From assembly GCF_001017655.1 (NCBI RefSeq), contig NZ_CP010904.1, positions 690,001 to 722,000 on the forward strand: a DNA stretch of 32,000 nucleotides, in the 5' to 3' direction. A model generated the notes under the pieces. The model was not told the origin of the DNA. It saw nothing but the letters and a program-made list of their open reading frames with translations, and ran no database searches. The first letter of the stretch is position 1. Each line of letters begins with the position of its first letter. The stretch comes from Kiritimatiella glycovorans (GTDB lineage: Bacteria > Verrucomicrobiota > Kiritimatiellia > Kiritimatiellales > Kiritimatiellaceae). The position numbers and the translations under genes are program-made. Positions 1 to 31,845 of the stretch are shown here, piece after piece.

Positions 1-76
1 GAGCGCCGGAGGCGCGATCCCATCCATCGATTCAAGGAATTCGAGTACGAGTACCGCTTTGCTGAGTACGAGCACG
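1..76 (+). repeat. Intergenic repeat family A, copy 1 (cut by window edge)
   Basis: GAGCGCCGGAGGCGCGATCC (GCGCC/GGCGC hairpin) followed by TTCAAGGAATTCGAGTACGAGTACCGCTTTGCTGAGTACGAG. Close copies lie at 3127-3185 (+), 9001-9080 (-) and 14897-14985 (-). Confidence 0.8.
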
Positions 77-2693: not shown

Positions 2694-2895
2694 TTCCACT
2701 CCTTCGCATTCCTGTCCGTTGCGTTGCTCTCGCGTGTTCCGACTCAACCTAACCGGAGAGGTTCCCCGGGTCGAGTCCATCCGTGTCATCGGCAATTCGT
2801 GGTCGAAAACACAAGAAAGTTCTCTCGCAAAGGCGCCGGGACCGCAAAGATAAATGAGAAGAGCACAGGCAAAGAGATCGTGCGCGCTCTCTTGC

Positions 2896-3123
2896 GTTCG
2901 TAGTAGGCCCGCAGGCCCGCGCAGCGGAAAAAGTTCGTAGTAGGCCCGCAGGCCTGCGAAGCAGGGCCAGGGCCGTTATCTTCACGCGCCTGGCCTGCCG
3001 GGGGCAGGCGTGCGACGCTACTACGAACGGATAACGCGCCTTGGCCCTTCGGGCGCGTGCGGCGCTACTACGAACGGTATCACGCGCCTTGGCCCTTCGG
3101 GTGCGTGCGGCGCTACTACGAAC
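2896..3123. repeat. REP/BIME-like cluster of GTAG-headed palindromic units in both orientations
   Basis: GTTCGTAGTAGGCCCGCAGGCC occurs at 2896-2917 and 2933-2954. The inverse core CTACTACGAAC occurs at 3018-3028, 3065-3075 and 3113-3123, each preceded by a GC hairpin (ACGCGCC-TTGGCCCTTCG-GGCGCGT). The last three form a 47-48 bp tandem. Confidence 0.75.
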
Positions 3124-3126
3124 AGG

Positions 3127-3185
3127 TCCATCCCCTGGTTCAAGGAATTCGAGTACGAGTACCGCTTCGCTGAGTACGAGTACGA
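3127..3185 (+). repeat. Intergenic repeat family A, copy 2
   Basis: TCCATCCCCTGGTTCAAGGAATTCGAGTACGAGTACCGCTTCGCTGAGTACGAGTACGA, nearly identical to 21-76. Confidence 0.8.
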
Positions 3186-3186
3186 T

Positions 3187-3218
3187 ATTCCCCCGGGGGT
3201 CCCCATGTGGAACTCAGG
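3187..3218 (+). repeat. 33-bp module D (ATTCCCCCGGGGGTCCCCATGTGGAACTCAGG)
   Basis: An inverted copy with about 2 mismatches lies at 5434-5466. It contains the CCCCCGGGGG palindrome. Confidence 0.7.
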
Positions 3219-3324: not shown

Positions 3325-3612
3325 ATGGGAGAGGAGATCAAAAGCGCCTACGAACTGGCGCTCGAACGCCTCGGCGGAGAGAAGTCCAGTCTCTCGGCGG
3401 GACAGAAGCAGGCGCTGGCGGAGGTCGATACGAAGACCGGGGCCCGCGTCGCGGAGCAGAGCATCCTCTACGACCAGCGGATACAGGATGCGCGTGCGAC
3501 CGGAGACCACGCCGCCGTCCAGGAACTCGAAGGGGCGAAAACCGCTGAAATCAACCGCCTCCGAGAAGAGGCCGAGGAAGAGAAGAACCGGATCCGCGGG
3601 GAGAAGGTATGA
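3325..3612 (+). CDS. Hypothetical small charged, probably helical protein (95 aa), translationally coupled to nadB
   Basis: ATG 3325 is preceded by GAAGGAGG at 3311-3318. Third codon positions are GC-rich, as in neighbouring genes. The stop TGA overlaps the nadB ATG (ATGA at 3609-3612). The upstream part of the track ORF (3010-3324) runs through repeats and is not coding. Confidence 0.65.
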   Translation: MGEEIKSAYELALERLGGEKSSLSAGQKQALAEVDTKTGARVAEQSILYDQRIQDARATGDHAAVQELEGAKTAEINRLREEAEEEKNRIRGEKV

Positions 3613-5273
3613 CCCCGCAGTCCCCCGGACGCCCGCCCCCCGCCGCGATGAAGACGCTCGATTGCGACTTTCTCGTGATCGGTTCCGGTTCCGCGGGTCT
3701 GCTGGCCGCGATTCATCTCAGCCGGCACGGCCGCGTGTTCGTCGTCTCCAAGCGCGCCCGCACCGAAAGCAATACGAACTACGCCCAGGGCGGGATCGCC
3801 TGCGTGGTCGATAAAGACGATTCGATCGGCCAGCACCTCCAGGACACCCTGCGCACCGGTTGCGGTTTGAGCGAGGAGTCCGTGGCCCGCGAAATCCTGG
3901 AGGCGGGACCGGACCGCATCCGCGAGCTGGAGCAGCTCGGACTCCGGTTTGCAACCCGCAAGGGACGCCATCCCGACGAGTACGACCTGGGGCAGGAGGG
4001 CGGACACTCGCGTCGCCGGGTCCTCCATGTGGGGGACATCACCGGCGGAGAACTGATCCGCGTCCTTCTCGGCCGGGTCAACGAAGAGCCGGACATCAAG
4101 GTCATCGAAAACTGGACCGCCATCGACCTGGTCACCACCGGATGGCTGGGACAGGACGGGCCGAACCGGTGCGTGGGAGCCTATTTCTTCAGCAGCGACA
4201 CGGGCGAGGTGCTCGCCGTCCGGGCGGGCGCCACGCTGCTGGCGACCGGCGGCGTGGGCAAGACCTATCTCTATACGAGCAATCCCGATGTGGCCACCGG
4301 CGACGGGCTTGCCATGGCCTGGCGCGCGGGGCTCCCCGTGCGGGATATGGAGTTCATCCAGTTTCACCCGACCTGCCTCTACCACCCGCACGCCAAGTCC
4401 TTCCTGATCAGCGAAGCGGTCCGCGGCGAGGGAGCGGAACTGATCGACGCCGCCGGACGGCCGTTCATGCATAAGTTCACCGGGCAGGGGTCCCTGGCGC
4501 CGCGCGACGTGACGGCGCGCGCGATCGACCACATCATGAAAAGCCGCGGCGACCCCTGCGTCTACCTCGACATTACGCACAAGTCGGAGGAGTTTCTCCG
4601 CGGCCGCTTCCCCAACCTCTACGAGACCTGCCTCCGGTTCGGTGTCGACATGGCGCGCCAGCCCATCCCGGTCGTGCCCGCCGCCCACTACTCCTGCGGA
4701 GGGGTCATCGCCGGCACCGACGGGACGACCGAAATGAAGGGGCTCTTCGCCTGCGGCGAAGTGGCCAGCACCGGTCTGCACGGCGCCAACCGCCTCGCAA
4801 GCAATTCGCTGCTCGAAGCGCTGGTCTGCGCCGGCCGAGCGGCGGAGCGCATGGCGGACTATGCCGCGGACGAGGACGGAACGATCGAGGACCGGATCCC
4901 GTCCTGGAAATACGGCGACGCCGTCCACAGCGACGAGGCGGTCGTCGTCGAACACAACTGGAACGAGGTGCGTTCGGTGATGTGGGATTACGTGGGCATC
5001 GTACGCTCCGACCGCCGCCTCGCGCGCGCCCGCAAGCGGATCACGACGATCCGCGAAGAGGTGCGCAACTACTACTGCGCCTACCTCATCACGCGCGACC
5101 TTCTCGAACTGCGCAGCGTCGCCGCCGTGGCCGAACTGATCGTCCGCTCCGCACAGCGGCGGCGGGAGAGCCGGGGACTGCACTACACCAAGGATTATCC
5201 GGAGCCCTCCCGCAAAACACCGGAGCATACGATCATCCGGAACACTCCCGGCGGCCCGCTGAAGACGGATTAG
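3609..5273 (+). CDS. nadB: L-aspartate oxidase
   Basis: FAD motif DFLVIGSGSAGL, plus HPT, SEAVRGEGA, HYSCGGV and GEVASTGLHGANRLASNSLLE. An alternative start is ATG 3648 (MKTLDCDF). Confidence 0.93.
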   Translation: MTPQSPGRPPPAAMKTLDCDFLVIGSGSAGLLAAIHLSRHGRVFVVSKRARTESNTNYAQGGIACVVDKDDSIGQHLQDTLRTGCGLSEESVAREILEAGPDRIRELEQLGLRFATRKGRHPDEYDLGQEGGHSRRRVLHVGDITGGELIRVLLGRVNEEPDIKVIENWTAIDLVTTGWLGQDGPNRCVGAYFFSSDTGEVLAVRAGATLLATGGVGKTYLYTSNPDVATGDGLAMAWRAGLPVRDMEFIQFHPTCLYHPHAKSFLISEAVRGEGAELIDAAGRPFMHKFTGQGSLAPRDVTARAIDHIMKSRGDPCVYLDITHKSEEFLRGRFPNLYETCLRFGVDMARQPIPVVPAAHYSCGGVIAGTDGTTEMKGLFACGEVASTGLHGANRLASNSLLEALVCAGRAAERMADYAADEDGTIEDRIPSWKYGDAVHSDEAVVVEHNWNEVRSVMWDYVGIVRSDRRLARARKRITTIREEVRNYYCAYLITRDLLELRSVAAVAELIVRSAQRRRESRGLHYTKDYPEPSRKTPEHTIIRNTPGGPLKTD

Positions 5274-5296: not shown

Positions 5297-5433
5297 CAGA
5301 GTCAGGGTCAGAGTTAGAGTCAGAATCAGAGTCAGAGTTAGAGTCAGAATCAGAATCAGAGTAAGAGTGGGAGGTGAGTGAGAAACCTGAAACCTGAGTA
5401 AGATCTCAGAGTCAGAGGGAGTGGGAAGCCTGA
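5297..5433 (+). repeat. Repeat family B copy (purine-rich hexamer array plus core), sense to nadB
   Basis: (GAGTCA/GAATCA/GAGTTA) x about 11, then GAGTAAGAGTGGGAGGTGAGTGAGAAACCTGAAACCTGAGTAAGA and GAGTCAGAGGGAGTGGGAAGCCTGA. It starts about 24 nt after the nadB stop. Confidence 0.8.
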
Positions 5434-5466
5434 CCTGAGTTCCACATGGGGGCCCCCGGGGGAATT
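5434..5466 (-). repeat. Module D, inverted copy
   Basis: The reverse complement reads GAATTCCCCCGGGGGCCCCCATGTGGAACTCAGG. It sits at the centre of the nadB/polA convergent spacer. Confidence 0.7.
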
Positions 5467-5512
5467 CAGCCTTCAGCCTTCAGGTTTCAGGTTTCCCACT
5501 CCTCATTCTCTC
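5467..5512 (-). repeat. Repeat family B copy, sense to polA
   Basis: The reverse complement reads GGAGAGAATGAGGAGTGGGAAACCTGAAACCTGAAGGCTGAAGGCTG. It begins about 10 nt after the polA stop. Confidence 0.7.
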
Positions 5513-5521
5513 CGCCCGATC

Positions 5522-8293
5522 TCAATGTGCCTCGAGCCAGTTCGCTCCTGTGCCGGAGTCGACGACGACGGGCACGGAGAGCGGCAGGGCCTCGCGCATG
5601 ATTTTCTCGATCCGGGGGACCAGCTCGGTCTGTTCCTCGAGGTGGAGGTCGAAGACGAGTTCATCGTGGACCTGCAGGAGCATCCGTGAGCGCAGACCTT
5701 CGCGGTCGATCAGGTCCCGGACGCGGATCATGGCCAGCTTGATCATATCGGCCGCCGTCCCCTGTATGGGGGCGTTGATGGCGTTGCGTTCCGCGGCGCC
5801 GCGGACGGTCGCGTTGCGGACGTGGATGTCGCGGATATGCCGGCGGCGGCCCGTCTTTGTCTCCACGTAACCGGTCTCGCGTGCGGCGGCGACCGTGCGC
5901 TCCATGTATTCGCGCACGCCGGGGTATTGCGTGAAATACTGCTCGATGATTTCCGCGCCCTCCTCGCGGGGGATGACGAGTCGCTGCGCGAGGCCGAACG
6001 CCGAGATACCGTAGATGAGGCCGAAATTAACCGTCTTGGCGCGCCGGCGCAGCTCGCGGTCGACGGACGGGGGCTCGACCCCGTAGATCCGGGATGCCGT
6101 GGCAGCATGGATGTCCTCGCCCCGCTCGAAGGCCTCCCGCATCCCCGTATCGCCGCTCAGGTCGGCCATGATGCGCAGCTCCACCTGCGAGTAGTCGCAG
6201 GCCAGCAGGGTGAACTCCTCCGAACGCGGGACGAAGGCGCGGCGGATCTCCTGTCCCTCCTCGCGCCGGATGGGAATGTTCTGAAGGTTGGGTGTGTGGC
6301 ATGCCAGCCGCCCGGTCGCGGTGTTGGTCTGGGCGAAATGGGTGTGGACCCGCCCGGTGGAAGACACGACGTACCGGGGCAGGGCGTCGACATAGGTGCC
6401 CTTCAGCTTCATCAGCCGACGGTGTTCGAGGAGTCGCGCCGCGATTTCGTGTTCCGTCGCCAGGGACTCCAGCACGGCTTCGTGGGTCGCGTACTGTCCG
6501 GTGCGGGTCTTTTTCGGTTTGGCCTTTAGTTTCAGATGGTCGAACAGGACTTCGCCGAGCTGTTTGGGGGAGTTGAGGTTGAACTCCATCCCCGCCTCCC
6601 GGTAAATGATCCGTTCCAGTTCCCGAAGCTGTTCTTCGAGCCGGGCGGCGAAGCGTTCCAGCGCCGCGGTATCGAGCGCAATCCCCTCGCACTCCATTTC
6701 GGCGAGCACGGGCACGAGCGGGCTTTCGATCTCGTAGAACACGCGCCGCTGTCCGGCCTCCTCCAGCATGGGTTCAAGTCGGCGCCAGAGCTGCAGCGTG
6801 ATGTCGGCGTCCTCGGCGGCATACTCCCGCAGACGGTCCGCGGGGACGTCGCGCAGCGTCTTCTGTTCGCGGCCCTTTTCCCCGATCAGTTCGCGGATCG
6901 GGATCGGGCGGTAATGAAGCAGCGTCTCGGCGACGTGGTCCATGCCGTGCCGCTGGTCGGGATCGATCAGGTAATGCGCGATCATCGTATCGTAGCAGGG
7001 ACCGCGAACCCGGATCCCCTGCCAGCGCAGGACACAGAGATCGAATTTCAGGTTATGGCCGATCTTGATCAGACCGTCGTCTTCCAGCACCGGCCTCAGA
7101 AGATCCAGCACCGTTTCGAGGCTGGACGCATCCACCGGGACAAACCACGCCTCGTGCGGTTCGACCGCGAAAGAGAGGCCGATCAGCTCCGCCGTCTCCG
7201 GATGCAGCGAGGTGGTCTCGGTATCGAGACAGAACGCTCCACTCGCCTTGAGCGTACGGCGGAGCGCCTTGAGGTCCTCCTCCGTCGATACGGCATGATA
7301 GTCGTGCGGGGTGTCTGCGATGGTGCTCACATCCCGGGGTTCCCCGGCGGTCTCCTCCATGGCGAACAGCTCTGTCTGCGCCGCTTCACCGGTCTCGGCG
7401 GCGACCGGTTTCGGCGCCGGTTCCTCGCCGAAAAGCCGACGAGCGACGGATTTCAGCTCGTACTTCCGCAGGAGGGTCCGGAGTTTCGCGGCGTCGGGGT
7501 CCCGCCGCCGGAAGTCCTCGAGCCGCACCTGCAGCGGTACGTCGCAGCGGATGGTCACGAGCTGCTTGCAGAGCCGGGCCCTGTCGCGGTTCTCCTCGAT
7601 CTTTTCGCGCTGTTTGCCCTTCAGCTCGTCGGTATGCGCCAGGAGGTTTTCGACCGAGCCGAACTGCCGGATGAGTTTCCCGGCCGTCTTTTCTCCGATC
7701 CCCGGCACGCCCGGGATGTTGTCGGAGGTGTCCCCGGCGAGGCCGAGGATGTCCGCGACCTGTCCGGGGTTTTCGATGCCCCATTGTTCGCGGACGTCGG
7801 ACGCGCCGAGGATTTCGGGCGGACCGCCCTTGCGGCCCGGGCGGTAGAGGTGGACGTGGTCGTTCACCAGCTGTGCGAAATCCTTGTCGGCGGTGACCAT
7901 GTAGGACTCGTAGCCCTCTTCCGGCGCATGGCGTGCGAGCGTGCCGATCACATCGTCGGCCTCCACCCCTTCCTCCATGAGCACCGGTATGTGGAACGCG
8001 TCGAGCATCTCGCGGATAATGGGCACGGACTCGACAATGCCCTCGGGCGTCTCCTCCCGCTGAGCTTTGTACTCGGGAAAGACCTCGTGGCGGAAGGTGG
8101 GTCCCCCGGCATCGATCGCCACCGCGATGTGCGTCGGCTCCTGATTTTCCTGGATTTCGACCAGGGCGTTCAGGAAGCCGAACACGGCCGACGTGTTCAC
8201 CCCGTCGGAGGTGATCAGCGGATTGCGCAGGAAGACGAAATAGGCCCGGTAGATCAGCCCCATGCCGTCGATCAGAAAAAGTTTCTTGTCCAT
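5522..8293 (-). CDS. polA: DNA polymerase I
   Basis: 923 aa with a 5'-nuclease N-terminus (LFLIDGMGLIYRAYF), a 3'-5' exonuclease domain (FCLDTETTSL) and polymerase motifs (DYSQVELRI, RRAAKTVNFGLIYG, QVHDELVF). Confidence 0.97.
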   Translation of the reverse strand: MDKKLFLIDGMGLIYRAYFVFLRNPLITSDGVNTSAVFGFLNALVEIQENQEPTHIAVAIDAGGPTFRHEVFPEYKAQREETPEGIVESVPIIREMLDAFHIPVLMEEGVEADDVIGTLARHAPEEGYESYMVTADKDFAQLVNDHVHLYRPGRKGGPPEILGASDVREQWGIENPGQVADILGLAGDTSDNIPGVPGIGEKTAGKLIRQFGSVENLLAHTDELKGKQREKIEENRDRARLCKQLVTIRCDVPLQVRLEDFRRRDPDAAKLRTLLRKYELKSVARRLFGEEPAPKPVAAETGEAAQTELFAMEETAGEPRDVSTIADTPHDYHAVSTEEDLKALRRTLKASGAFCLDTETTSLHPETAELIGLSFAVEPHEAWFVPVDASSLETVLDLLRPVLEDDGLIKIGHNLKFDLCVLRWQGIRVRGPCYDTMIAHYLIDPDQRHGMDHVAETLLHYRPIPIRELIGEKGREQKTLRDVPADRLREYAAEDADITLQLWRRLEPMLEEAGQRRVFYEIESPLVPVLAEMECEGIALDTAALERFAARLEEQLRELERIIYREAGMEFNLNSPKQLGEVLFDHLKLKAKPKKTRTGQYATHEAVLESLATEHEIAARLLEHRRLMKLKGTYVDALPRYVVSSTGRVHTHFAQTNTATGRLACHTPNLQNIPIRREEGQEIRRAFVPRSEEFTLLACDYSQVELRIMADLSGDTGMREAFERGEDIHAATASRIYGVEPPSVDRELRRRAKTVNFGLIYGISAFGLAQRLVIPREEGAEIIEQYFTQYPGVREYMERTVAAARETGYVETKTGRRRHIRDIHVRNATVRGAAERNAINAPIQGTAADMIKLAMIRVRDLIDREGLRSRMLLQVHDELVFDLHLEEQTELVPRIEKIMREALPLSVPVVVDSGTGANWLEAH

Positions 8294-8334: not shown

Positions 8335-8880
8335 ATGAAGACCGCCGAACAAAGTCAATCTCCCGGCCCCCGCGGCCGTAATGTGGTGCTGATCGGGATG
8401 CCCGGCTCGGGCAAGAGTACCGTCGGGGTGCTGCTCGCACGCCGCAGCGGACGGGGATTCATCGACACCGATCTGCGCATCCAGCAGGCGGAGGGCATGA
8501 AACTGCAGCAGGTGCTGGAGCGGCGCGGGCTCGACGGCTTCCGCAGGCTGGAAGAGGAGACCCTACGGGCGCTGCGTGCGGAACGATGCGTCATCGCCAC
8601 CGGCGGAAGCGCGGTCTACAGCGACGCCGCGATGACGCACCTGCGCTCGCTCGGCCCGGTGGTCTGGCTGGACTGCGGCGTGGACACGCTGCGGCGGCGG
8701 ATCGGGGAGGGCGGTCAGCGCGGCATGGTGCGTCGCCCCGGTCTCTCCCTTGAACAGCTCGCTCGCGAACGCCGCCCGCTCTACGAGCGCTGGGCCGACC
8801 TGCACATCGATGCCTCCGCCGGCTCCGCCGAGGAAGTGGCGGGGGAGATTCAGAAACTGAGCGGGAAGGCTGAGACCTGA
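8335..8880 (+). CDS. aroK: Shikimate kinase
   Basis: Walker A LIGMPGSGKSTVG followed by GFIDTD and ATGGSAV. 181 aa. Confidence 0.88.
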   Translation: MKTAEQSQSPGPRGRNVVLIGMPGSGKSTVGVLLARRSGRGFIDTDLRIQQAEGMKLQQVLERRGLDGFRRLEEETLRALRAERCVIATGGSAVYSDAAMTHLRSLGPVVWLDCGVDTLRRRIGEGGQRGMVRRPGLSLEQLARERRPLYERWADLHIDASAGSAEEVAGEIQKLSGKAET

Positions 8881-8928
8881 AGGCTGCGTGGGGGGAGAGA
8901 TTGAGGGAGACCGGAAACCTAAGTAAAA
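8865..8928 (+). repeat. Repeat family B copy (degenerate), overlapping the aroK stop
   Basis: GAAGGCTGAGACCTGAAGGCTG ... GAGAGATTGAGGGAGACCGGAAACCTAAGTAAAAG. Confidence 0.6.
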
Positions 8929-9000: not shown

Positions 9001-9080
9001 CGTACGCATACTCGTGCTCAGCGAAGCGGTACTCGTGCTCGATCTCTTGAATGGGATAAAGGATCGCGCCTTCGGCGCTC
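9001..9080 (-). repeat. Intergenic repeat family A, copy 3
   Basis: The plus strand reads CGTACGCATACTCGTGCTCAGCGAAGCGGTACTCGTGCTCGATCTCTTGAATGGGATAAAGGATCGCGCCTTCGGCGCTC. This is the reverse complement of the family A consensus. Confidence 0.8.
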
Positions 9081-9081
9081 C

Positions 9082-9116
9082 GAGTACGAGTACGAGTACG
9101 AGTAAGAGTAAGAATG
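9082..9116 (+). repeat. Hexamer tract (GAGTAC)3-GAGTAAGAGTAAGAATG
   Basis: Direct reading of the sequence. It uses the same GAGNNN word set as families A and B. Confidence 0.7.
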
Positions 9117-9135
9117 ATGTTCACCCCTTCATGCT

Positions 9136-9167
9136 CTTCAGCCATCAGGTTTCAGCCCTCTCACTCC
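9136..9167 (-). repeat. Repeat family B core, degenerate copy
   Basis: The reverse complement reads GGAGTGAGAGGGCTGAAACCTGATGGCTGAAG. Confidence 0.55.
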
Positions 9168-9271: not shown

Positions 9272-11233
9272 ATGAAAAAGCTGCTGTGTGTGCTGCTCGC
9301 GGGGTGCTGGGTCACGGGGCTCCCGGCGGGGGCGATCGATCTCTCTCTCAGCGCCGGAATGGCTTATCCCGGCGTCTGGCCGCAATTCCGCGGCGAAGTC
9401 TACCGTCATACCGTCATCAGTCCGCTGGGGCGGGTCAGCGCCGAGGTGGACGTGCATCCCGGTGGCCAGCTCACGATTCAGGTGCAGCGCGGCTGGGAGA
9501 CGGTGCTCCAGCGCTCGCCGATCGGAATCACGGTCGACGGGGTGGAGCTGGGCGACGACGTGAAGCTGGAGGTACTGAATCGCTACGCGGTGCGCGAGCG
9601 ATACGACACGCGGGGGCGCGCTTCGCGGGCGCGCCATCACGCCGACGGCCTGAGGCTCAAGGTATGGCACTACCCTTACGACGAGTACTGGGTGCTCGAC
9701 GTGCGCGCCTACGACACCGGCATCGCCTGGCGCTATCAGATCCCGGGCGAGGGGACGCACCGGGTCGTCGGCGAGGTCACCGCCTTCGATTTCCCGAGAA
9801 AGACCGTGTTCTGGGCGCAGGACGATCCGCATACCTTTGAAGCCGAATGGCGGCGCTGGCGCCTCGATCAGCATAAAGATCAGAAAACCGAATTCGGTCT
9901 TCCGGTGACGGCCGAGCTGCCCGACGGCCGGTTTGTGATGATTGCCGAGGCCGACGTGCTGCGTTACAGCGGCATGAGTCTGAGGCTGGATGAGGGCGGA
10001 CTGCTGCAGAGCCGCTTCATCCACGACCCGCAGGGCTGGACGATGGAGGGACCGTTCACGTCGCCGTGGCGCGTGGTGCTGGCGGCCGATCACCTCGATC
10101 AGCTCGTACAGTCGCGGGTGATCCATCACCTCGCTCCCGAACCGGACCGGCACCTGTTTCCCGAGGCGATGCGCACCGGGTGGCTGGAGCCCGGGACCTG
10201 CTACCGGCCGGAATGGGTTCATGGACGCGAGGGCGCCCGCTGGAACCGGCAGAAGGCGCTGGTGGATGAAGCTTCCTCTCTGGGGTGCGGGAGTTTCAGG
10301 GTCGGCGCGGGCTGGGAAGATCCGGAATTCGGCTGGGGGCGCGGAGACCGGCGCTGGGAACGCCTCCGCGAACTGGTGGAATATGCGGGCAACCGCGATA
10401 TCGGAGTCTGGATATCGGTGAGCACGGAAGAAGACCGGCGGTCCCGCCTTGAGAGTGCGGATGAGCGGAAGGCGTTCTTCGACCGCTGCGGGAAGGCGAT
10501 GGTCGAAGGGGTCACCTTTAACGGGTTGAGCGGCGAATCTCAGGACACATTGGCGTTGAGCATGCAGCTGCTCCGGGAGGCCGCGGCGCGGGAGCTGATG
10601 GTGAGTTTTCGTGATACGGGCAAAGCGGCGGGCCAGATGCGGACCTGGCCCAACGAGATGACGCGCGAAGCGATCCGGGGCCTCGATCACAACCGAAACG
10701 AGGGCTACGCGTTGCCCGCGTCGCAATACTGCGTGTATCCGTTCACCCGGCTCATCGCGGGTCCGGCCGACTTCAGTCCGATGACCCTGCGCCCGGACCG
10801 TATGGGCGATACCACGGCGGGACTGCAGTTCGCCTCGGCGGTGATTTTCAGCTCGCCGGTGCACGCCTGGGCGGATTCAACGGACGTCTATCGCGAAAGC
10901 CTCGCCTTCGACATGATGCGTGCCATGCCCGTGAGCTGGGATGAGACGCGGGCGATCGCGGGAAGCGAGATCGGGCGGGTGGCGGCGTTCGCGCGCCGCA
11001 AGGGCGAAGAGTGGTGGGTAGCGGTCATGAACGGCACCGACGAGGCCTTCGAGTATTCGCTCGGCACGTTCTTCCTGAAAGACGGCCACTGGCAGGCCAC
11101 GATCCTGCATGAAGCCGAGGACGACCCGCATAAGCTGGCCCGCGCCGTGACCGAAGTGCGGGCCCTGCATGACCCGCTGCTGATCAAGGTCCACGCCCAC
11201 GGCGGATTCGTGGCGCGATTCGTACGGAAATAG
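9272..11233 (+). CDS. Glycoside hydrolase family 97-like protein (secreted)
   Basis: Signal peptide MKKLLCVLLAGCWVTGLPAGA. The N-domain pattern (SPLGRVSAEVDV..GQLTIQV, SPIGITVDG, LDVRAYDTGIAWRYQIP) and MTREAIRGLDHN resemble what I recall of GH97 signatures. SD AAGGAG is upstream. Confidence 0.7.
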   Translation: MKKLLCVLLAGCWVTGLPAGAIDLSLSAGMAYPGVWPQFRGEVYRHTVISPLGRVSAEVDVHPGGQLTIQVQRGWETVLQRSPIGITVDGVELGDDVKLEVLNRYAVRERYDTRGRASRARHHADGLRLKVWHYPYDEYWVLDVRAYDTGIAWRYQIPGEGTHRVVGEVTAFDFPRKTVFWAQDDPHTFEAEWRRWRLDQHKDQKTEFGLPVTAELPDGRFVMIAEADVLRYSGMSLRLDEGGLLQSRFIHDPQGWTMEGPFTSPWRVVLAADHLDQLVQSRVIHHLAPEPDRHLFPEAMRTGWLEPGTCYRPEWVHGREGARWNRQKALVDEASSLGCGSFRVGAGWEDPEFGWGRGDRRWERLRELVEYAGNRDIGVWISVSTEEDRRSRLESADERKAFFDRCGKAMVEGVTFNGLSGESQDTLALSMQLLREAAARELMVSFRDTGKAAGQMRTWPNEMTREAIRGLDHNRNEGYALPASQYCVYPFTRLIAGPADFSPMTLRPDRMGDTTAGLQFASAVIFSSPVHAWADSTDVYRESLAFDMMRAMPVSWDETRAIAGSEIGRVAAFARRKGEEWWVAVMNGTDEAFEYSLGTFFLKDGHWQATILHEAEDDPHKLARAVTEVRALHDPLLIKVHAHGGFVARFVRK

Positions 11234-14843: not shown

Positions 14844-14896
14844 ACTGAAACCCCGTTGTTCCTGAATTCAACATTGGGACAGCCCGGTAATATCGG

Positions 14897-14985
14897 ACTC
14901 TTACTCAGCGGAGCGCTTCTCGTACTCGATTTCTTGAATCGGGGCTGTGGGATCGCACCTTCGGCGCTCCGAGTACGCGTACGTA
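14897..14985 (-). repeat. Intergenic repeat family A, copy 4
   Basis: The plus strand reads GACTCTTACTCAGCGGAGCGCTTCTCGTACTCGATTTCTTGAATCGGGGCTGTGGGATCGCACCTTCGGCGCTCCGAGTACGCGTACGTA. This is the reverse complement of the family A consensus. Confidence 0.8.
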
Positions 14986-15150
14986 TCATGTGCTCTATGA
15001 CCCGGAGGTGAAGCCCGGTTTCGATTCTATTTTACTCTGATTCCTCCTCCTCCCCGAACCAACCTACACGTGCACCCCCTGGAGGCTGTGTTTTTGGGTA
15101 AAGCCTTGATTTCCCGGTCTGAATCCGTACCCTGACGACTCATTTTCTAC

Positions 15151-15207
15151 GGTGGATGTAGCTCAGTTGGTTAGAGTCCTGCTGTCCAGCAGGATGGCCT
15201 TGGAGGC
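15151..15207 (+). pseudogene. Truncated, diverged tRNA-His copy 1 (acceptor 5' strand and D-arm, foreign hairpin, remnant of anticodon 3' stem and variable loop)
   Basis: GGTGGATGTAGCTCAGTTGGTTAGAG matches the real tRNA. It is followed by the hairpin TCCTGCTGTCCAGCAGGA and then TGGCCTTGGAGGC (real tRNA: TGGCCCTGGAGGC). The T-arm and acceptor 3' strand are absent. Confidence 0.8.
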
Positions 15208-15272
15208 TGTGTTTTTGGGTAAAGCCTTGATTTCCCGGTCTGAATCCGTACCCTGATCGATTCATTTTCTAC

Positions 15273-15329
15273 GGTGGATGTAGCTCAGTTGGTTAGAGTC
15301 CTGCTGTCCAGCAGGATGGCCTTGGAGGC
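15273..15329 (+). pseudogene. Truncated, diverged tRNA-His copy 2
   Basis: Identical in sequence to copy 1. Confidence 0.8.
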
Positions 15330-15348
15330 TGTGTTTTTGGGTAAAGCC

Positions 15349-15376
15349 TTGATTTCCCGGTCTGAATCCGTACCCT
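15349..15376 (+). promoter_or_regulatory. Putative sigma70-like promoter TTGATT-N16-TACCCT for tRNA-His (also present in each repeat unit)
   Basis: TTGATT is at 15349-15354 and TACCCT at 15371-15376, about 19 nt before the tRNA. The same pair occurs at 15106-15133 and 15227-15254. Confidence 0.4.
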
Positions 15377-15394
15377 GATCGATTCATTTTCTAC

Positions 15395-15472
15395 GGTGGA
15401 TGTAGCTCAGTTGGTTAGAGCGCCAGGTTGTGGCCCTGGAGGCCGCGGGTTCAAATCCCGTCATTCACCCCA
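15395..15472 (+). tRNA. tRNA-His (anticodon GTG) with encoded G-1 and CCA
   Basis: Hand-folded cloverleaf. Acceptor is GTGGATG/CATTCAC. D-arm is GCTC-AGTTGGTTA-GAGC. Anticodon arm is CCAGG-TTGTGGC-CCTGG. T-arm is GCGGG-TTCAAAT-CCCGT. The extra 5' G (15395) opposite discriminator C is the tRNA-His hallmark. CCA is at 15470-15472. Confidence 0.93.
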
Positions 15473-18064: not shown

Positions 18065-18065
18065 T

Positions 18066-19100
18066 TTCGTGGCAACAACCCGCTTCGCGGGTTTCGTGAA
18101 AGTCGGGGGGGGAGATCGTGGCAGGCCCTTACGGGCTTCGTGGCAGTCGGGGGGAGAGTCGTGTCAACGGCCCATACGGGCCTCGTGGCAGTCGGGGGGA
18201 GAGTCGTGGCAACGGCCCTTACGGGCCTCGTGGCAGTCGGGGAAAGCTCCGTTCCTCCGAGGCGCGCAGCGCCGTTGCCCCGAGCGCAGCGTTGTCCCGA
18301 GGCGCGCAGCGCCGTTTTCACGAGCGAAGCGTGGGGGAGATCGTGGCAGTCGGGAAAACCGTGTCAACGGCCCATACGGGCCTCGAGGCAGTCGGGGAAA
18401 GCTCCGTTCCTCCGAGGCGCGCAGCGCCGTTGCCTCGAGCGCAGCGTTCCCACGAGGCGCGTAGCGCCGTTTTCACGAGCGAAGCGTGGAAGATCGTGGC
18501 AACAACCCGCTTCGCGGGTTTCGTGAAAGTCGGGGGGAGAGTCGTGTCAACGGTCCAAGGGCCTCGTGGCAGTCGGGGACGTGCCGTTTCCCCGAGCGCA
18601 GCGTTGTCCCGAGGCGCGCAGCGCCGTTTTCACGAGCGAAGCGTGGGGGAGATCGTGGCAGTCGGGAAAACCGTGTCAACGGCCCAAGGGCCTCGTGGCA
18701 GTCGGGGAAAGCTCCGTTCCTCCGAGGCGCGCAGCGCCGTTGCCTCGAGCGCAGCGTTCCCACGAGGCGCGTAGCGCCGTTTTCACGAGCGAAGCGTGGA
18801 AGATCGTGGCAACAACCCGCTTCGCGGGTTTCGTGAAAGTCGGGGGGAGATCGTGTCAACGGCCCATACGGGCCTCGTGGAAGTCGGGGGAAATGCCGTT
18901 CCACGAGCGCAGCGTTGTCCCGAGGCCGAAGGCCGTTTCTCCGAGGCGCGCAGCGCCGTTGCCTCGAGCGCAGCGTTCCCACGAGGCGCGTAGCGCCGTT
19001 TTCACGATCCCCCCCGAGGCCGAAGGCCGTTGCCACGAGCGCAGCGTTTCCACGAGGCGCGCAGCGCCGTTCCCACGAGCGAAGCGTGGAAGATCGTGCC
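18066..19100. repeat. About 1-kb mosaic array of short GC-rich hairpin modules with a 312-bp higher-order repeat
   Basis: Recurring modules are TCGTGGCAGTCGGGG (about 12x including variants), CAACGGCCC-ATAC-GGGCC, ACCCGC-TTC-GCGGGT, GAGGCGC-GCA-GCGCCGTT, CACG-AGCGAAG-CGTGG and GGCC-GAA-GGCC. 18281-18592 is repeated at 18593-18903. 18391-18540 and 18701-18850 read identical. Confidence 0.9.
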
Positions 19101-19156
19101 CTCCATTTGATCCGTGCTCGTGCCGGAATGGAAAGCCATCAACGCAGACCTGATCT

Positions 19157-19556: not shown

Positions 19557-20372
19557 TCAGTTCAAGTCCCTGCAGGTCTCCTGCAGAAGGTCGAGGTCGA
19601 TCTTCCTGGAATCCGCCATGGCGGCGGCGGTCAGCGCCAGGTCACAGATCCTGTTGATCTCGCGCGGGTTGCCCCGCGATTCGGTGGCGATGACTTCGTA
19701 GCAGGCGGGATCGAAGACATCGGTCGGTCCGTCGGCCTTCCGCAGCCGGTGACGGATGTAGGGCTCGGTTTCGTCGGGATCGAGCGGGGGCAGGTGCCAC
19801 TTAAGTTCCAGCCGCTGGGCGAGGGGCGGCACCTTTTTGAGCTGTTCGCCGAGTTCGGTCTGGCCGAGGAGCACCACGGTGATCAGCGGCCGGTAATCGG
19901 GCTGGTAGTTCAGCAGCATCCGCAGTTCCTCGAAAACGCGCGCGTCGGGGATCAGGTGCGCCTCGTCGATCGCCAGCACGATATGCCGTCCCGCCGAAGA
20001 GGTGCGCTGAAGCAGGTCGTTGATCCCGTGCACCACGTCGTATTTGGTTTCCCCCTTCAGTTCCCAGCCCAGGCAGAAGGAGATTTCGCGGAGGAGTTCC
20101 ACCGGTTCGAGCAGCGGATTGACCACCTGGCCGGTGACATACCGCGCCGCATCGAGCCGGCTTGAAACCCAGTTCCAGAGGAGGGTCTTGCCGGTGCCGT
20201 AATCGCCCGTGAGAAGCGTGAAGGCGTGCTGCTTCTCGATAGCCAGCCGCAGCCGCACCTGGGCCTCCTCGTGCCCCCGGCTCTCGAAGTAGATCCGGGG
20301 GTCGGTATGATTGGCGAACGGCGCCCCGGAAACCCCCCAGAACTCGCATAGATCAGGCATTACCGTGCTCAT
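19557..20372 (-). CDS. ExeA/GspA-like AAA ATPase (type found in PEP-CTERM/EPS loci)
   Basis: FWGVSGAPF, Walker A LTGDYGTGKT, Walker B VLAIDEAHL, LLGQTEL and GNPREINRICD. The start is taken at ATG 20372 (MSTVMPDL). The track start at 20444 is a GTG inside the family B repeat. Confidence 0.8.
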   Translation of the reverse strand: MSTVMPDLCEFWGVSGAPFANHTDPRIYFESRGHEEAQVRLRLAIEKQHAFTLLTGDYGTGKTLLWNWVSSRLDAARYVTGQVVNPLLEPVELLREISFCLGWELKGETKYDVVHGINDLLQRTSSAGRHIVLAIDEAHLIPDARVFEELRMLLNYQPDYRPLITVVLLGQTELGEQLKKVPPLAQRLELKWHLPPLDPDETEPYIRHRLRKADGPTDVFDPACYEVIATESRGNPREINRICDLALTAAAMADSRKIDLDLLQETCRDLN

Positions 20373-20432
20373 GGCTCGGACTTTACCCGGGCCCGTCGGG
20401 GAATTCAAACTGTTTGTTCTGGTCTCAAGTTG

Positions 20433-20504
20433 CAGGTTTCTCACTCCCTCTTACTCTGACTCTGACTCTGACTCTGACTCTGATTCTGATTCTGATTCTG
20501 ACTC
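20433..20504 (-). repeat. Repeat family B copy, sense to the wecA-like gene
   Basis: The reverse complement reads (GAGTCA)(GAATCA)3(GAGTCA)4 GAGTAAGAGGGAGTGAGAAACCTG. It covers the last 17 codons and the stop of the upstream gene. Confidence 0.85.
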
Positions 20505-21656
20505 CGCCCCTCTCCTCTTCAGAGCGGCGTGTTCCAGCATAGCCACGAAGACGTACAGGAGGACGACCTGGAGAGCGATGACCAGCGATTCGAGCAGGGT
20601 CGAATGGATCAGTCCCAGGGCGTCGAGGGCGATGGAGAAGTTGAGCAGCCAGACGACCAGCACGGTTTGCGTGTGGCTCCATCCCAGCATATTGAAGCGG
20701 TGATGGATGTGGTCCCTGCCGGTGTAGTTGATCCACTGCCGGACGGTCCGCACCCGGCCGTCCGCGATGCGCGCGACGGTGGTGAAGATCATGTCATAGA
20801 TGGCGACATTCAGGATGACGACGGGAACCAGGAACGAGGTGATGTTCTGGCCCCGGGACTCGGACCACGTTCCGAGCAGGCCCAGCGCCGCGAGCATGAA
20901 TCCGATCGTGGTGCTGCCGCTGTCGCCCAGGAAGATGCGTCCCGGCCGCGTGTTGTAGCCCAGGAAGATCACGCAGGCGGCGCCCAGTGCCGCCGAACAG
21001 TAGGCCAGCGCGGGCTGGTTGAGCATCAGGGCCAGCGCGGTGAAGGCGAACGCGCTGCCCGCGCCGAGGCCGGAGACCAGTCCGTTCATTCCGTCGAGGA
21101 AATTGACCGCGTTGGTGATGCCCACCACCCAGAGCACGGTAATTCCCAGTTCCAGCGCATGACCCCACCACGTCGGCGGAAGGAACGTGACGCGGATTCC
21201 GCCCGCGATCAGGATGAACGTCGCGGCGAGCTGCACGAGAAAACGCAATCCCGCGCGCACACTTACATAGTCGTCGATGACACCCACAAGAAATACGGGG
21301 GCGGTGGCGAGCAGGACGATGCGCACTTCGAATATCGAGTGGTAGCCCGACAGCACGCCGATCAGGATGCCCGCATACAGCGCAATGCCGCCCCAGCGGG
21401 GCACGCTGTATTCATGAATCTTGCGCGAACCGGGGTCGGGGATGTCCAGTGCGCCGAGACGCCGGCCGAGTTGAATTACGGGCGGGGTGAGCACGAACAC
21501 CGCCGCCGCGGTGACGAAGGCCACGAGGGTTACATGACGAAGCCCCGTCCAGGCGAAACGGGTAATCAGCGCGGCGAGCGCGAAAAGCACGAGGCACCCG
21601 GTGCCGCCGATCGTCCCCCCCGTGAAAAAAGGCAGTCTCGAATCCTCTTCGCTCAC
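20451..21656 (-). CDS. Polyprenyl-phosphate HexNAc-1-phosphate transferase (MraY/WecA/WbpL family) with an (ES)8E tail
   Basis: Multi-TM protein with NAVNFLDGMNGLVSG and FLGDSGS motifs. The start is GTG 21656, overlapping the DegT stop (GTGA), with AAGGAG 8 nt upstream. The longer track ORF (to 21986) overlaps degT out of frame. Confidence 0.85.
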   Translation of the reverse strand: MSEEDSRLPFFTGGTIGGTGCLVLFALAALITRFAWTGLRHVTLVAFVTAAAVFVLTPPVIQLGRRLGALDIPDPGSRKIHEYSVPRWGGIALYAGILIGVLSGYHSIFEVRIVLLATAPVFLVGVIDDYVSVRAGLRFLVQLAATFILIAGGIRVTFLPPTWWGHALELGITVLWVVGITNAVNFLDGMNGLVSGLGAGSAFAFTALALMLNQPALAYCSAALGAACVIFLGYNTRPGRIFLGDSGSTTIGFMLAALGLLGTWSESRGQNITSFLVPVVILNVAIYDMIFTTVARIADGRVRTVRQWINYTGRDHIHHRFNMLGWSHTQTVLVVWLLNFSIALDALGLIHSTLLESLVIALQVVLLYVFVAMLEHAALKRRGAESESESESESESESESE

Positions 21657-27656: not shown

Positions 27657-28325
27657 ATGACGGAGTCCGTAATCGGCGCCGGGGTGCTGCTGGTCGATGA
27701 CGAACCATCGGTCCGCAGACTGTGCGAAAAAATGCTCCGCGACGCGTGGGAGGTGCGCTCGGCGGGGAGCATCGCGGAGGCCGAGACCGTGCTGGAGCAG
27801 TTTTCGCCCAAGGTCGCGGTGTGTGATTTCAAACTTCCCGACGGCGACGGGTGCGCGTTCCTGAAAATGCTTCTGGAACGCGACGCCAAGATACAGCGCA
27901 TCCTGCTTACGGGCTATACGGACCCCGAAATGATGCGGCGCGGGATCAATGAGGCGCGACTGTTCCGGATGATCGGGAAGCCGGTGTCGACCGCGGAACT
28001 GCGTGCGGCGGTCGAATACGCAGCGCTGGAATACGACATCCTCGATACCGCGGAGTACGTCGCGGCGGAACACGACCGGTTCAAGCAGGAACTGGAGAGC
28101 TGGCCCTGCCGCGCCGAACGCTGGGCCCGCTTTCTCAACCGCAGCCTCGTCCAGTTCGGCCGCTTCCTGGTGCGCGCGACGGCCCTCGTCACCGTCGCCG
28201 TCGGGATCTGGATCGCCCTCGGATTCTTCGGTATCGTGTTCCTGTATTTCATGAAATCCTGGTTCGGCGTGGATCTCCTGCCGCATGCCCACATTGAGAA
28301 TCTCGTGCGGGGGATCATGCGGTGA
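27657..28325 (+). CDS. Response-regulator receiver domain with a C-terminal transmembrane tail (no recognisable output domain)
   Basis: LLVDDEPSV, VAVCDFKLPDGDG, ILLTGYTD and GKPV form the receiver. The C-terminus carries the hydrophobic helix ALVTVAVGIWIALGFFGIVFLYF. Confidence 0.8.
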   Translation: MTESVIGAGVLLVDDEPSVRRLCEKMLRDAWEVRSAGSIAEAETVLEQFSPKVAVCDFKLPDGDGCAFLKMLLERDAKIQRILLTGYTDPEMMRRGINEARLFRMIGKPVSTAELRAAVEYAALEYDILDTAEYVAAEHDRFKQELESWPCRAERWARFLNRSLVQFGRFLVRATALVTVAVGIWIALGFFGIVFLYFMKSWFGVDLLPHAHIENLVRGIMR

Positions 28326-28578
28326 GGAAGAGGAAGAGGAAGAATCAGAATCAGAGTCAGAGTAAGAGGGAGTGAGAAACCTGAGACCTGAGACCTGAGT
28401 AAGAGGGAGTGAGAAACCTGAGACCTGAGACCTGAGTAAGAGGGAGTGAGAAACCTGAAACCTGAGACCTGAGTAAGAGGGAGTGAGAAACCTGAAACCT
28501 GAGACCTGAGTAAGAGGACAGAGTCAGAGGAAGAGTTTGAAACCTGAGACCTGAGTAAGAAACCTGAGACCTGAGTGG
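28326..28578 (+). repeat. Repeat family B, largest copy: purine hexamers plus four 37-bp tandem units and a degenerate tail
   Basis: (GAGGAA)n and (GAATCA)2 GAGTCA come first. GAGTAAGAGGGAGTGAGAAACCTGAGACCTGAGACCT then starts at 28360, 28397, 28434 and 28471. The array starts at the stop codon of the receiver gene. Confidence 0.9.
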
Positions 28579-28634
28579 GTTAAAGTTCACCACACCGGAG
28601 ACTCCGGGGATCGGCGCGGAAGGGCGGCGTGACG

Positions 28635-29213
28635 ATGACGAATGCAATCGACAAGTGGCGTGAACTCTGGCGCGAGGAATGCGGACCGGTCTCGCCGCGC
28701 TGGGGTCTGGCGAGCCTGCTGGAGGCCCCGCTGCCCGCGGGCGCGATGGGGCGGCTGCGCTCGCGGCTGTACCGGTGGGCCGGGATGAAGATCGGCCGCG
28801 GAACGGTCGTGCTCGGCCCGATCCGGCTCAGGGGCGGGGCGGGGCGCGTCGGTCGGCTCACCGTGGGGCGCGACTGTTTTTTGAATGACGGGCTCTACTT
28901 CGATGCCGCGGCGCCGATACGGGTCGGGGACGGCGTTTCGCTGGGCATGGATGGTCTCTTCACGACGGTGGGCCACGCGGTCGGAGCGCCCGGGTTTCGC
29001 GCGGGCGAGCGCTCGCCCCGGCCCATCACGATCGGCGACGGCGCCTGGCTCGCGGCGCGGGTCACGGTGCTCCCGGGGGTGACCATCGGCCCCGGAACCA
29101 TCGTCGGCGCGGGCGCCGTGGTGACGCGCGATCTCCCCGCCCACGTGTTCGCGGCCGGGGTTCCGGCGAAGACGGTGCGTTCTCTCGAAGGGGAGCAGAG
29201 CGATGAGGTTTAG
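28635..29213 (+). CDS. Hexapeptide-repeat (LbH) O-acetyltransferase, WcaF/Mac-like
   Basis: ITIGDGAWLAARVTVLPGVTIGPGTIVGAGAVVTRDLPAHVFAAGVPAK. ATG 28635 is used here, and GTG 28629 (the track start) is an alternative. Confidence 0.85.
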   Translation: MTNAIDKWRELWREECGPVSPRWGLASLLEAPLPAGAMGRLRSRLYRWAGMKIGRGTVVLGPIRLRGGAGRVGRLTVGRDCFLNDGLYFDAAAPIRVGDGVSLGMDGLFTTVGHAVGAPGFRAGERSPRPITIGDGAWLAARVTVLPGVTIGPGTIVGAGAVVTRDLPAHVFAAGVPAKTVRSLEGEQSDEV

Positions 29214-31823: not shown

Positions 31824-31845
31824 GCTGAAGGATTCATAAAATACG

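Follow-up and report, generated by a model that had tools for sequence, protein, structure and literature searches.

The chromosome of Kiritimatiella glycovorans L21-Fru-AB (2,949,723 bp, 63.31% G+C; PMC5148204) carries an array of purine-rich tandem repeats directly behind a response-regulator receiver gene, and this locus raises the question of whether the array is an isolated microsatellite, a dedicated 3′-end element or one copy of a dispersed family. We analyzed the array within a window of 32,000 nt (NZ_CP010904.1, positions 690,001 to 722,000 of the forward strand; coordinates below count from the first letter of this window) and confirm that it belongs to a genuine dispersed, oriented and stop-adjacent repeat family. 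The analysis establishes the anatomy, recurrence, orientation and stop adjacency of the family within the window, as well as its lack of structure and its restriction to this lineage among the data scanned.

The array spans 28324-28578 (+) and is composed of a hexamer leader, four 37-bp units and a decayed tail, as the original prediction had described it at the receiver stop. The leader, (GAGGAA)3(GAATCA)2GAGTCA (28324-28359), was identified by Tandem Repeats Finder (TRF; rows 28324-28343 and 28341-28368) and by hexamer pattern matches. The TGA of the receiver gene (28323-28325) overlaps the first GAGGAA, leaving a single T ahead of the hexamers. The four units (28360-28507, starting at 28360, 28397, 28434 and 28471) each combine a 16-nt core, GAGTAAGAGGGAGTGA, with three GARACCT heptamers behind it. 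TRF assigns 28360-28560 a period of 37 with 5.2 copies, 93% matches and a score of 302. The first two units are identical to each other, as are the last two, and the pairs differ by one base. The tail (28508-28578) contains two further motif copies, at 28533 and 28553. The receiver gene itself (27657-28325, +) is supported by Pfam (Response_reg, E = 5.9e-19) and by a third-position G+C of 0.82, and the gene beyond the array encodes a hexapeptide-repeat transferase on the same strand, starting at about 28629.

Recurrence was counted over the 32-kb window, with expectations obtained from shuffled sequences. The 17-mer proposed earlier as the conserved core gave 9 matches at up to three mismatches (0.10 expected), in agreement with the claim that the core is found elsewhere in the stretch; its exact form is confined to the 28360 array. 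A 22-nt consensus, GAGTGRGAARCCTGARACCTGA, derived by aligning eight copies, gave 11 matches at six loci under the same mismatch limit (0.00 expected), at 5376(+), 5480(-), 8859(+), 9145(-), 20425(-) and six positions in 28370-28574(+), and it fits the four 37-bp units without a mismatch. The copies at 20425 and 28360 share an exact string of 33 nt, TCAGAGTCAGAGTAAGAGGGAGTGAGAAACCTG, and those at 28360 and 5376 are identical over 23 nt. The matches at separate loci and the 33-nt identity therefore identify a dispersed family with a unique core, not merely a set of independent microsatellites. GARTMA-type hexamer runs lie ahead of the core at 5299-5370, 20445-20504 and 28330-28371, with a related (GAGTAC)n run at 9088-9117. 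The hexamer pattern has 27 matches in total (0.04 expected), and TRF finds period 6 with 12 copies at 5297-5368 and with 9.5 copies at 20448-20504, plus runs of period 7. The copies also have common flanking modules, GGGGCRGAGTCAG on the 5′ side and TGAATTCCCC…GGGCCC on the 3′ side.

Shared unique segments of 33 nt and 23 nt at separate loci, common flanking modules and the occurrence of pieces of the element in mosaic with other dispersed modules would also be expected of a non-autonomous mobile element, MITE-like or otherwise mobilized, that targets gene 3′ ends. We consider this improbable. The arrays at 28360 and 20425 have no inverted repeats, which does not fit a miniature inverted-repeat transposable element (MITE). 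No target-site duplication is evident in the flanks that were read, where tandem runs of variable length obscure the limits of the element, and the 20 window open reading frames (ORFs) scanned with Pfam include no transposase-type domain.

To place the copies relative to genes, we based gene calls on third-position G+C and tested them against Pfam (20 window ORFs) and in one homology search, which support the earlier identification of the flanking genes as nadB, polA, aroK, a wecA-like gene and the receiver gene. An L-aspartate-oxidase-like flavoprotein gene (nadB-like; 3609-5273, +, Pfam FAD_binding_2, TAG at 5271-5273) is followed after 24 nt by a TRF-detected array of 12 hexamers, CAGAGT/CAGAAT/TAGAGT (5297-5370, +), and then by two core copies, GAGTGAGAAACCTGAAACCTGA and GGGAGTGGGAAGCCTGA (5376-5438, +), recovered by the 17-mer and 22-mer searches. 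A GC-rich palindromic module (…GGGGGCCCCCGGGGG…, 5434-5465), which recurs at 3187-3218, separates these from an opposed copy (5467-5521, -) starting directly past the stop (5522-5524) of the DNA polymerase I gene polA (5522-8293, -, homology search); its motif sets in 21 nt past the stop codon. The polA copy, first listed as a weak one at 5467-5512(-), is indeed present but is not weak, because 5480-5501(-) matches the consensus perfectly. The module between the opposed copies is a 32-nt G+C-rich palindrome, ATTCCCCCGGGGGYCCCCATGTGGAACTCAGG, that self-BLAST finds at 3187-3218(+) and 5434-5465(-) with 97% identity; a related sequence, TGAATTCCCCGACGGGCCCGGG, follows the copy at about 20390.

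At the shikimate kinase gene aroK (8335-8880, +, Pfam SKI), the copy at 8859-8928(+) overlaps the gene end, with two mismatches to the 22-mer and a weaker purine-rich piece behind it. It had been placed at 8895-8928, but the best copy is at 8859-8880, the final 22 nt of the ORF including its stop. The copy at 20425-20504(-), recovered by the 22-mer and hexamer searches and by translation, is fused to the end of a gene for a WecA/MraY-family glycosyltransferase (GT4; from 20451, -, Pfam). The sixth locus is an orphan (9136-9166, -, two mismatches to the 22-mer) with no same-strand gene upstream; its motif, at 9145(-), lies about 105 nt upstream of a GH97 gene on the non-coding strand of that gene.

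At five of the six loci the purine-rich strand is thus the sense strand of the gene immediately upstream. The 22-mer lies 103 nt from the stop of the nadB-like gene, 21 nt from that of polA, -22 nt at aroK, 6 nt at the WecA-like gene and 46 nt at the receiver gene, and the composite element, with its leader runs included, starts 0-25 nt past the stop or before it. The proposed sense orientation therefore holds at five of six loci, while the proposed distance of 0-25 nt to the gene end fails for the core at nadB (103 nt; its hexamers are 24 nt away). Among the 6,086 nt of the window classed as non-coding, a random site and orientation falls no more than 110 nt downstream of a same-strand stop with P = 0.109 by permutation; for at least five of six copies P is about 8e-5, a value that is only indicative, as the 110-nt threshold was picked after inspection of the data and the gene calls are our own. 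The next start lies 50-75 nt beyond the element, and the window spacers classed as divergent contain no full copy. Most gene 3′ ends in the window have no element. The orientation statements rest on six loci, which are too few for a genome-wide claim. Purine-rich or heptamer-like fragments at other gene 3′ flanks (1826-1859 and 31824-31845), such as TGA-GCGAAGGCGAGGGGATGAAGAGGA behind an iPGM-family gene (Metalloenzyme/iPGM_N) and TAG-GCTGAAGGATTC behind a Wza-like gene, may be decayed copies.

At three genes, those for the receiver, aroK and the WecA-like transferase, the element supplies the stop codon itself; the last 22 nt of aroK, TGA included, are the motif. The wecA-like gene had been thought to end before its copy. 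The copy is there, but translation shows that the ORF has no stop before the repeat and reads through the hexamers: GAG TCA GAA TCA … are translated as …LKRRGA-ESESESESESESESESE, an (ES)8E tail closed by the core's TAA (20451-20453). Among 1.84 billion representative proteins searched, GT4 homologues align to query residues ~370-384 and end 5-15 residues further on with unrelated hydrophilic tails, and for this reason we regard the (ES)8E tail as repeat-derived. For annotation, the point is that these repeats give real proteins their stop codons and low-complexity tails. A phase-variation switch was rejected at these sites: the copies flank housekeeping genes, and changes in unit number alter only the length of the (ES)n tail and shift no frames.

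Over 28326-28578 the sense strand contains 8, 8 and 11 stops in its three frames, as had been predicted, and most loci have the element abutting or overlapping a stop codon. Both observations are consistent with a selected trap that would halt ribosomes in all three frames after read-through or frameshifting, in a genome whose 63% G+C makes out-of-frame stops rare. We nevertheless judge such a trap very improbable. Any heptamer repeat that contains a stop presents it in all three frames, because 7 mod 3 = 1, and the three-frame stops are therefore not evidence of design. A single three-frame stop of 10 nt would suffice, most window genes manage without the element, and the hexamer runs, which contain no stops on the sense strand, are even translated at 20451. 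The antisense strand had been described as stop-free, which is correct inside the 37-bp units but not over the whole of 28326-28578, where its frames contain 3, 1 and 0 stops. An antisense protein-coding role was discarded, since the ORF over the array is missing from the protein collection and a search with it found no homologues.

As RNA, neither the 28360 array (z = +0.38) nor the 20425 copy (z = +0.36) folds better than shuffled sequence. The asserted absence of a hairpin thus applies to these two copies but not to the convergent nadB/polA spacer, where the opposed copies (22-nt arms, 95% complementary) and the central GC palindrome fold into a long stem at 5417-5505. We found no promoter-like or terminator-like site in 28100-28800. 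With no hairpin at either array, an intrinsic terminator is ruled out, in line with the original prediction. Window-wide, terminator-like sites are about as frequent as in shuffled sequences or modestly more so (19 versus 10.9 ± 4.2 and 11 versus 9.2 ± 2.7), and none falls within a copy of the element. At gathering thresholds the only Rfam family recovered from the window is tRNA, and relaxing the cutoff to E of 10 adds nothing but noise, excluding a known RNA family. A G-quadruplex was dismissed because G-tracts are too sparse (one GGG per 37-bp unit), and a clustered regularly interspaced short palindromic repeat (CRISPR) array because the units stand head to tail without spacers. The repetitive extragenic palindrome (REP) and bacterial interspersed mosaic element (BIME) classes do not fit either, given the lack of inverted repeats at both arrays and the origin of the 5417-5505 hairpin in two opposed copies and a separate palindrome.

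Single-stranded RNA of this kind could serve as a 3′ untranslated region (UTR) platform for an RNA-binding protein, CsrA-like on GGA or Hfq-like on ARN/AG repeats, that would control mRNA stability or translation of the neighboring gene. The 253 nt of purine-rich sequence contain nine GGA motifs and an (ARN)6 run, and the orientation is strictly that of the sense strand. On the other hand, the GGA motifs do not sit in hairpin loops, neither CsrB/Rsm-type nor other Rfam families match at E up to 10, and the flanking genes (nadB-like, polA, aroK, glycosyltransferase, receiver) are functionally unrelated, so that a platform of this type appears quite unlikely. A sponge RNA of the CsrB/RsmZ type was rejected separately: the nine GGA motifs lie in unstructured RNA, neither a promoter-like nor a terminator-like site accompanies them, and Rfam gives no match.

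The strands of the element differ strongly in composition. The sense strand of 28326-28578 is 72% purine (G 0.34, C 0.15), and its complement is accordingly C-rich and G-poor (C 0.34, G 0.15), as had been noted, with 28 YC per 100 nt versus 16 for the window. The loci are among the most G/C-skewed 80-nt windows of the 32 kb. By a test of composition only, the antisense strand fits a Rho utilization (rut) tract in being unstructured, richer in C than in G and rich in YC. This would suit an insulator against antisense or convergent transcription, in which the C-rich complement would act as a predicted Rho-loading tract on polymerase entering from the gene 3′ end. At convergent pairs each element would then be a Rho-dependent terminator for the opposite gene, and the G-rich sense strand would spare operons from premature internal termination. 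The opposed copies in the convergent nadB/polA spacer are arranged as such a model needs, and the scarcity of terminator-like sites beyond the shuffled level, with none in the elements, is compatible with it. However, composition alone is weak evidence for a rut site, most window gene 3′ ends have no element, and at the orphan, 9145(-), the 5′ region of the GH97 gene receives the C-rich strand, a harmful position under the model. We therefore hold an insulator to be unlikely. The broader proposal of a selected, orientation-specific 3′-end module, Rho-resistant on its G-rich sense strand, Rho-loading on its antisense strand and tuned in length by hexamer, heptamer and 37-bp amplification, would suit a phylum in which canonical intrinsic terminators seem to be little used; it too appears unlikely. 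Were antisense rut activity or insulation real, the family would offer a sequence-defined handle on gene insulation and termination in a lineage with few recognizable terminators, and interest in it would rise sharply if transcript ends tied the elements to antisense or convergent termination.

We next consider how far the family extends. The exact 17-mer, which in the window itself matches only the 28360 array, has 37 scattered single matches in the GTDB species representatives, close to the number estimated by chance, and the three of the 37 that were read all lie in repeat-free, coding-like sequence. A 20-mer scan of JGI metagenomes returned one chance match only, and the core is absent from IMG/VR viral contigs. 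The best other polA homologues, from Kiritimatiellales and Pontiellaceae, reach no more than 59-61% identity. No similar element was present in about 60 kb of sequence surrounding polA in Pontiella desulfatans and in two Kiritimatiellales metagenome-assembled genomes. A protein search with the peptides expected if ORFs ran into the element found nothing. Among the data scanned, the core is thus restricted to this lineage. P. desulfatans (L039) has different intergenic arrays of its own, of a stop-triplet-rich decamer, GATTAGTGAA, at 9952-9979, 20165-20192 and 20578-20604; two inverted decamer arrays flank a small PDDEXK_3 gene, and one starts right at its stop.

The short units, by comparison, are widespread. 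(GAGTCA)n runs are common and generic in the viral collection. GARACCT arrays of at least three units occur in 28 IMG/VR contigs, compared with 20 and 19 for two permuted control heptamers, and the GARACCT heptamer is therefore not special. Using a codon-phase G+C classifier that was right on 85 of 88 test segments from window genes, we found that GARACCT arrays in high-G+C viral contigs share the strand of their upstream coding sequence in 9 cases and oppose it in 2, a small sample. Long (GAAACCT)n arrays of up to 18 units are present in two viral contigs (L183, 7660-7850(-), and L178, 11950-12110(-)), both of which lack the core; those of L183 adjoin (TTAAGAG)n runs, in a style that resembles the Kiritimatiella element.

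The element had also been put forward as previously undescribed. This is correct for its sequence, which has no Rfam match and a core found in no scanned collection, but not for its class, since stop-adjacent heptamer simple sequence repeats (SSRs) have been published (PMC4692102). In Xanthomonas and Nostoc, intergenic GGGAATC / GGGGA(C/T)T heptamers of variable copy number lie mostly between co-directional ORFs and rarely between divergent ones (Rehm et al. 2015, PMC4692102). They are found 0-50 bp past the stop on the coding strand, sometimes overlapping it, or, in a second class, just upstream of an ORF, on that ORF's non-coding strand; the genes they flank are unrelated and their function is unknown (PMC4692102). 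The Kiritimatiella copies are likewise stop-adjacent with the G-rich strand coding, have functionally unrelated neighbors and include no full copy in divergent spacers, and the orphan at 9145(-), upstream of an ORF and carried by its non-coding strand, resembles the second class. They differ in their units, GARACCT and GARTMA, which have no quadruplex-forming G-tracts, in a sense strand rich in stop codons, and in being composite, with hexamers, a unique core, heptamers and a 37-bp higher-order repeat.

A second published class is the TAACTGA direct repeat of marine Beggiatoaceae, Cyanobacteria and Bacteroidetes (MacGregor 2015, PMC4679880). In forward orientation it reads as stops and overlaps ORF ends only briefly, and coding potential has been argued to decide which sites and orientations are tolerated (PMC4679880). 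Our element shares with it a stop-containing heptamer that is unstructured as RNA. TAACTGA repeats, however, mostly stand a few nucleotides upstream of starts and have no associated unique core, whereas the Kiritimatiella copies follow stops, end 50-75 nt before the next start and carry a unique core and a different unit. More generally, the survey of prokaryotic long simple sequence repeats (LSSRs) by Mrazek et al. 2007, as relayed in PMC4679880, describes runs of 5-11-nt units longer than chance, with a sporadic phylogenetic distribution, heptamers as the commonest class and slippage as the proposed origin. The short-unit runs of the window exceed chance in the same way (27 versus 0.04 hexamer matches; periods 6, 7 and 37), but a dispersed unique core and a strict gene-relative orientation set the family apart from the LSSR class. 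REP/BIME- and BOX-type repeats form modular, dispersed, lineage-specific mosaics in 3′ intergenic regions, with variable numbers of sub-units. The copies described here are similarly modular and occur beside other repeat modules; unlike REP/BIME, the 28360 and 20425 arrays have no palindrome or hairpin, and the REP-like repeats of the window (2890-3130 and 18065-19156) are a separate family.

Taking this evidence together, we favor, at a probability of about one half, a lineage-specific, non-coding composite SSR family of K. glycovorans, with arrays made by slippage, a copied core, and retention beside ORF ends in one orientation. Each copy combines at most three modules, namely a run of hexamers (GARTMA/GAGGAA), a unique core of ~16-22 nt (GAGTAAGAGGGAGTGAG…) and a run of GARACCT heptamers, the core and three heptamers having probably been amplified at 28360 as the 37-bp higher-order unit. 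Arrays would lengthen and shorten by replication slippage. The core and its flanking runs would be copied between sites by recombination or an unknown mobilization, a step that we infer because two loci share 33 identical nt. Copies would then survive only where they are harmless, directly past or overlapping a stop and away from the region of the next start and from divergent promoter spacers. The only orientation kept would be the one that places the stop-rich, G>C strand on the mRNA, which would end any entering reading frame with at most a short added tail, such as (ES)8E, and would also exclude the C-rich, G-poor complement from the sense transcript. The element would be carried as unstructured purine-rich RNA in 3′ UTRs or intercistronic spacers, if these are transcribed.

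Several points weigh against a merely tolerated SSR family. Identical unique cores at separate loci are beyond what slippage can produce, and we found no copying mechanism, neither terminal inverted repeats nor a transposase-type domain in the 20 scanned ORFs. A stop filter is insufficient alone, as the Xanthomonas GGGAATC unit is by our reading stop-free in all frames and yet has the same orientation. A TGA-bearing permuted control heptamer in viral contigs has same-strand and opposite-strand counts of 2/2 upstream and 5/8 downstream (a small sample), and this lack of sense bias is a warning that stop codons alone may not account for orientation. A selected function would likewise fit the strength of the positional bias, and only six loci, from 32 kb, were examined.

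If the family is simply tolerated, its description would add modestly to what is known, as the first record of such repeats in Kiritimatiellota. The rule that the G-rich strand is coding and lies just after a stop, reported for Xanthomonas and Nostoc, would also gain a second case that is unrelated in sequence; two independent cases would argue for a general constraint or mechanism rather than for G-quadruplex biology.

The window contains other repeats as well. One block (18065-19156) comprises more than 1 kb of nested tandem repeats with periods of 20-71 and 310, the 310-bp period scoring 1215 in TRF. Its building blocks are short G+C-rich stem-loops, for example GGCCC-TTAC-GGGCC and GGCGC-GCA-GCGCC. 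The block occupies the convergent spacer between genes for a GT1 glycosyltransferase and a receiver and looks like a REP/BIME-like cluster. Two copies of CGTAGTAGGCCCGCAGGCC at 2890-3130, each with a GTAG head and a hairpin, look REP-like and are followed by a 48-bp tandem repeat of 2.4 copies with GGCCCTTCGGGC hairpins (3008-3123). A second dispersed family of ~75-130 nt, CGGAGCGCCGAAGGCGCGATCC…ATTCAAGRAATCGAGTACGAGTACCGCTTCGCTGAGTACGAGTACGA, is present at 1-76(+), 3139-3185(+), 9009-9094(-) and 14860-14983(-); its copies are 81-96% identical and contain (GAGTAC)n hexamers, and at two loci a purine-rich piece resembling the stop-adjacent element precedes it on the same strand. Finally, a 122-bp tandem repeat at 15080-15472 (2.8 copies, 99% identity) has first two copies in which the 5′ part of tRNA-His alone (GGTGGATGTAGCTCAGTTGGTTAGAG) is joined to a hairpin and T-run, and only the third copy continues into an intact tRNA-His (15396-15472).

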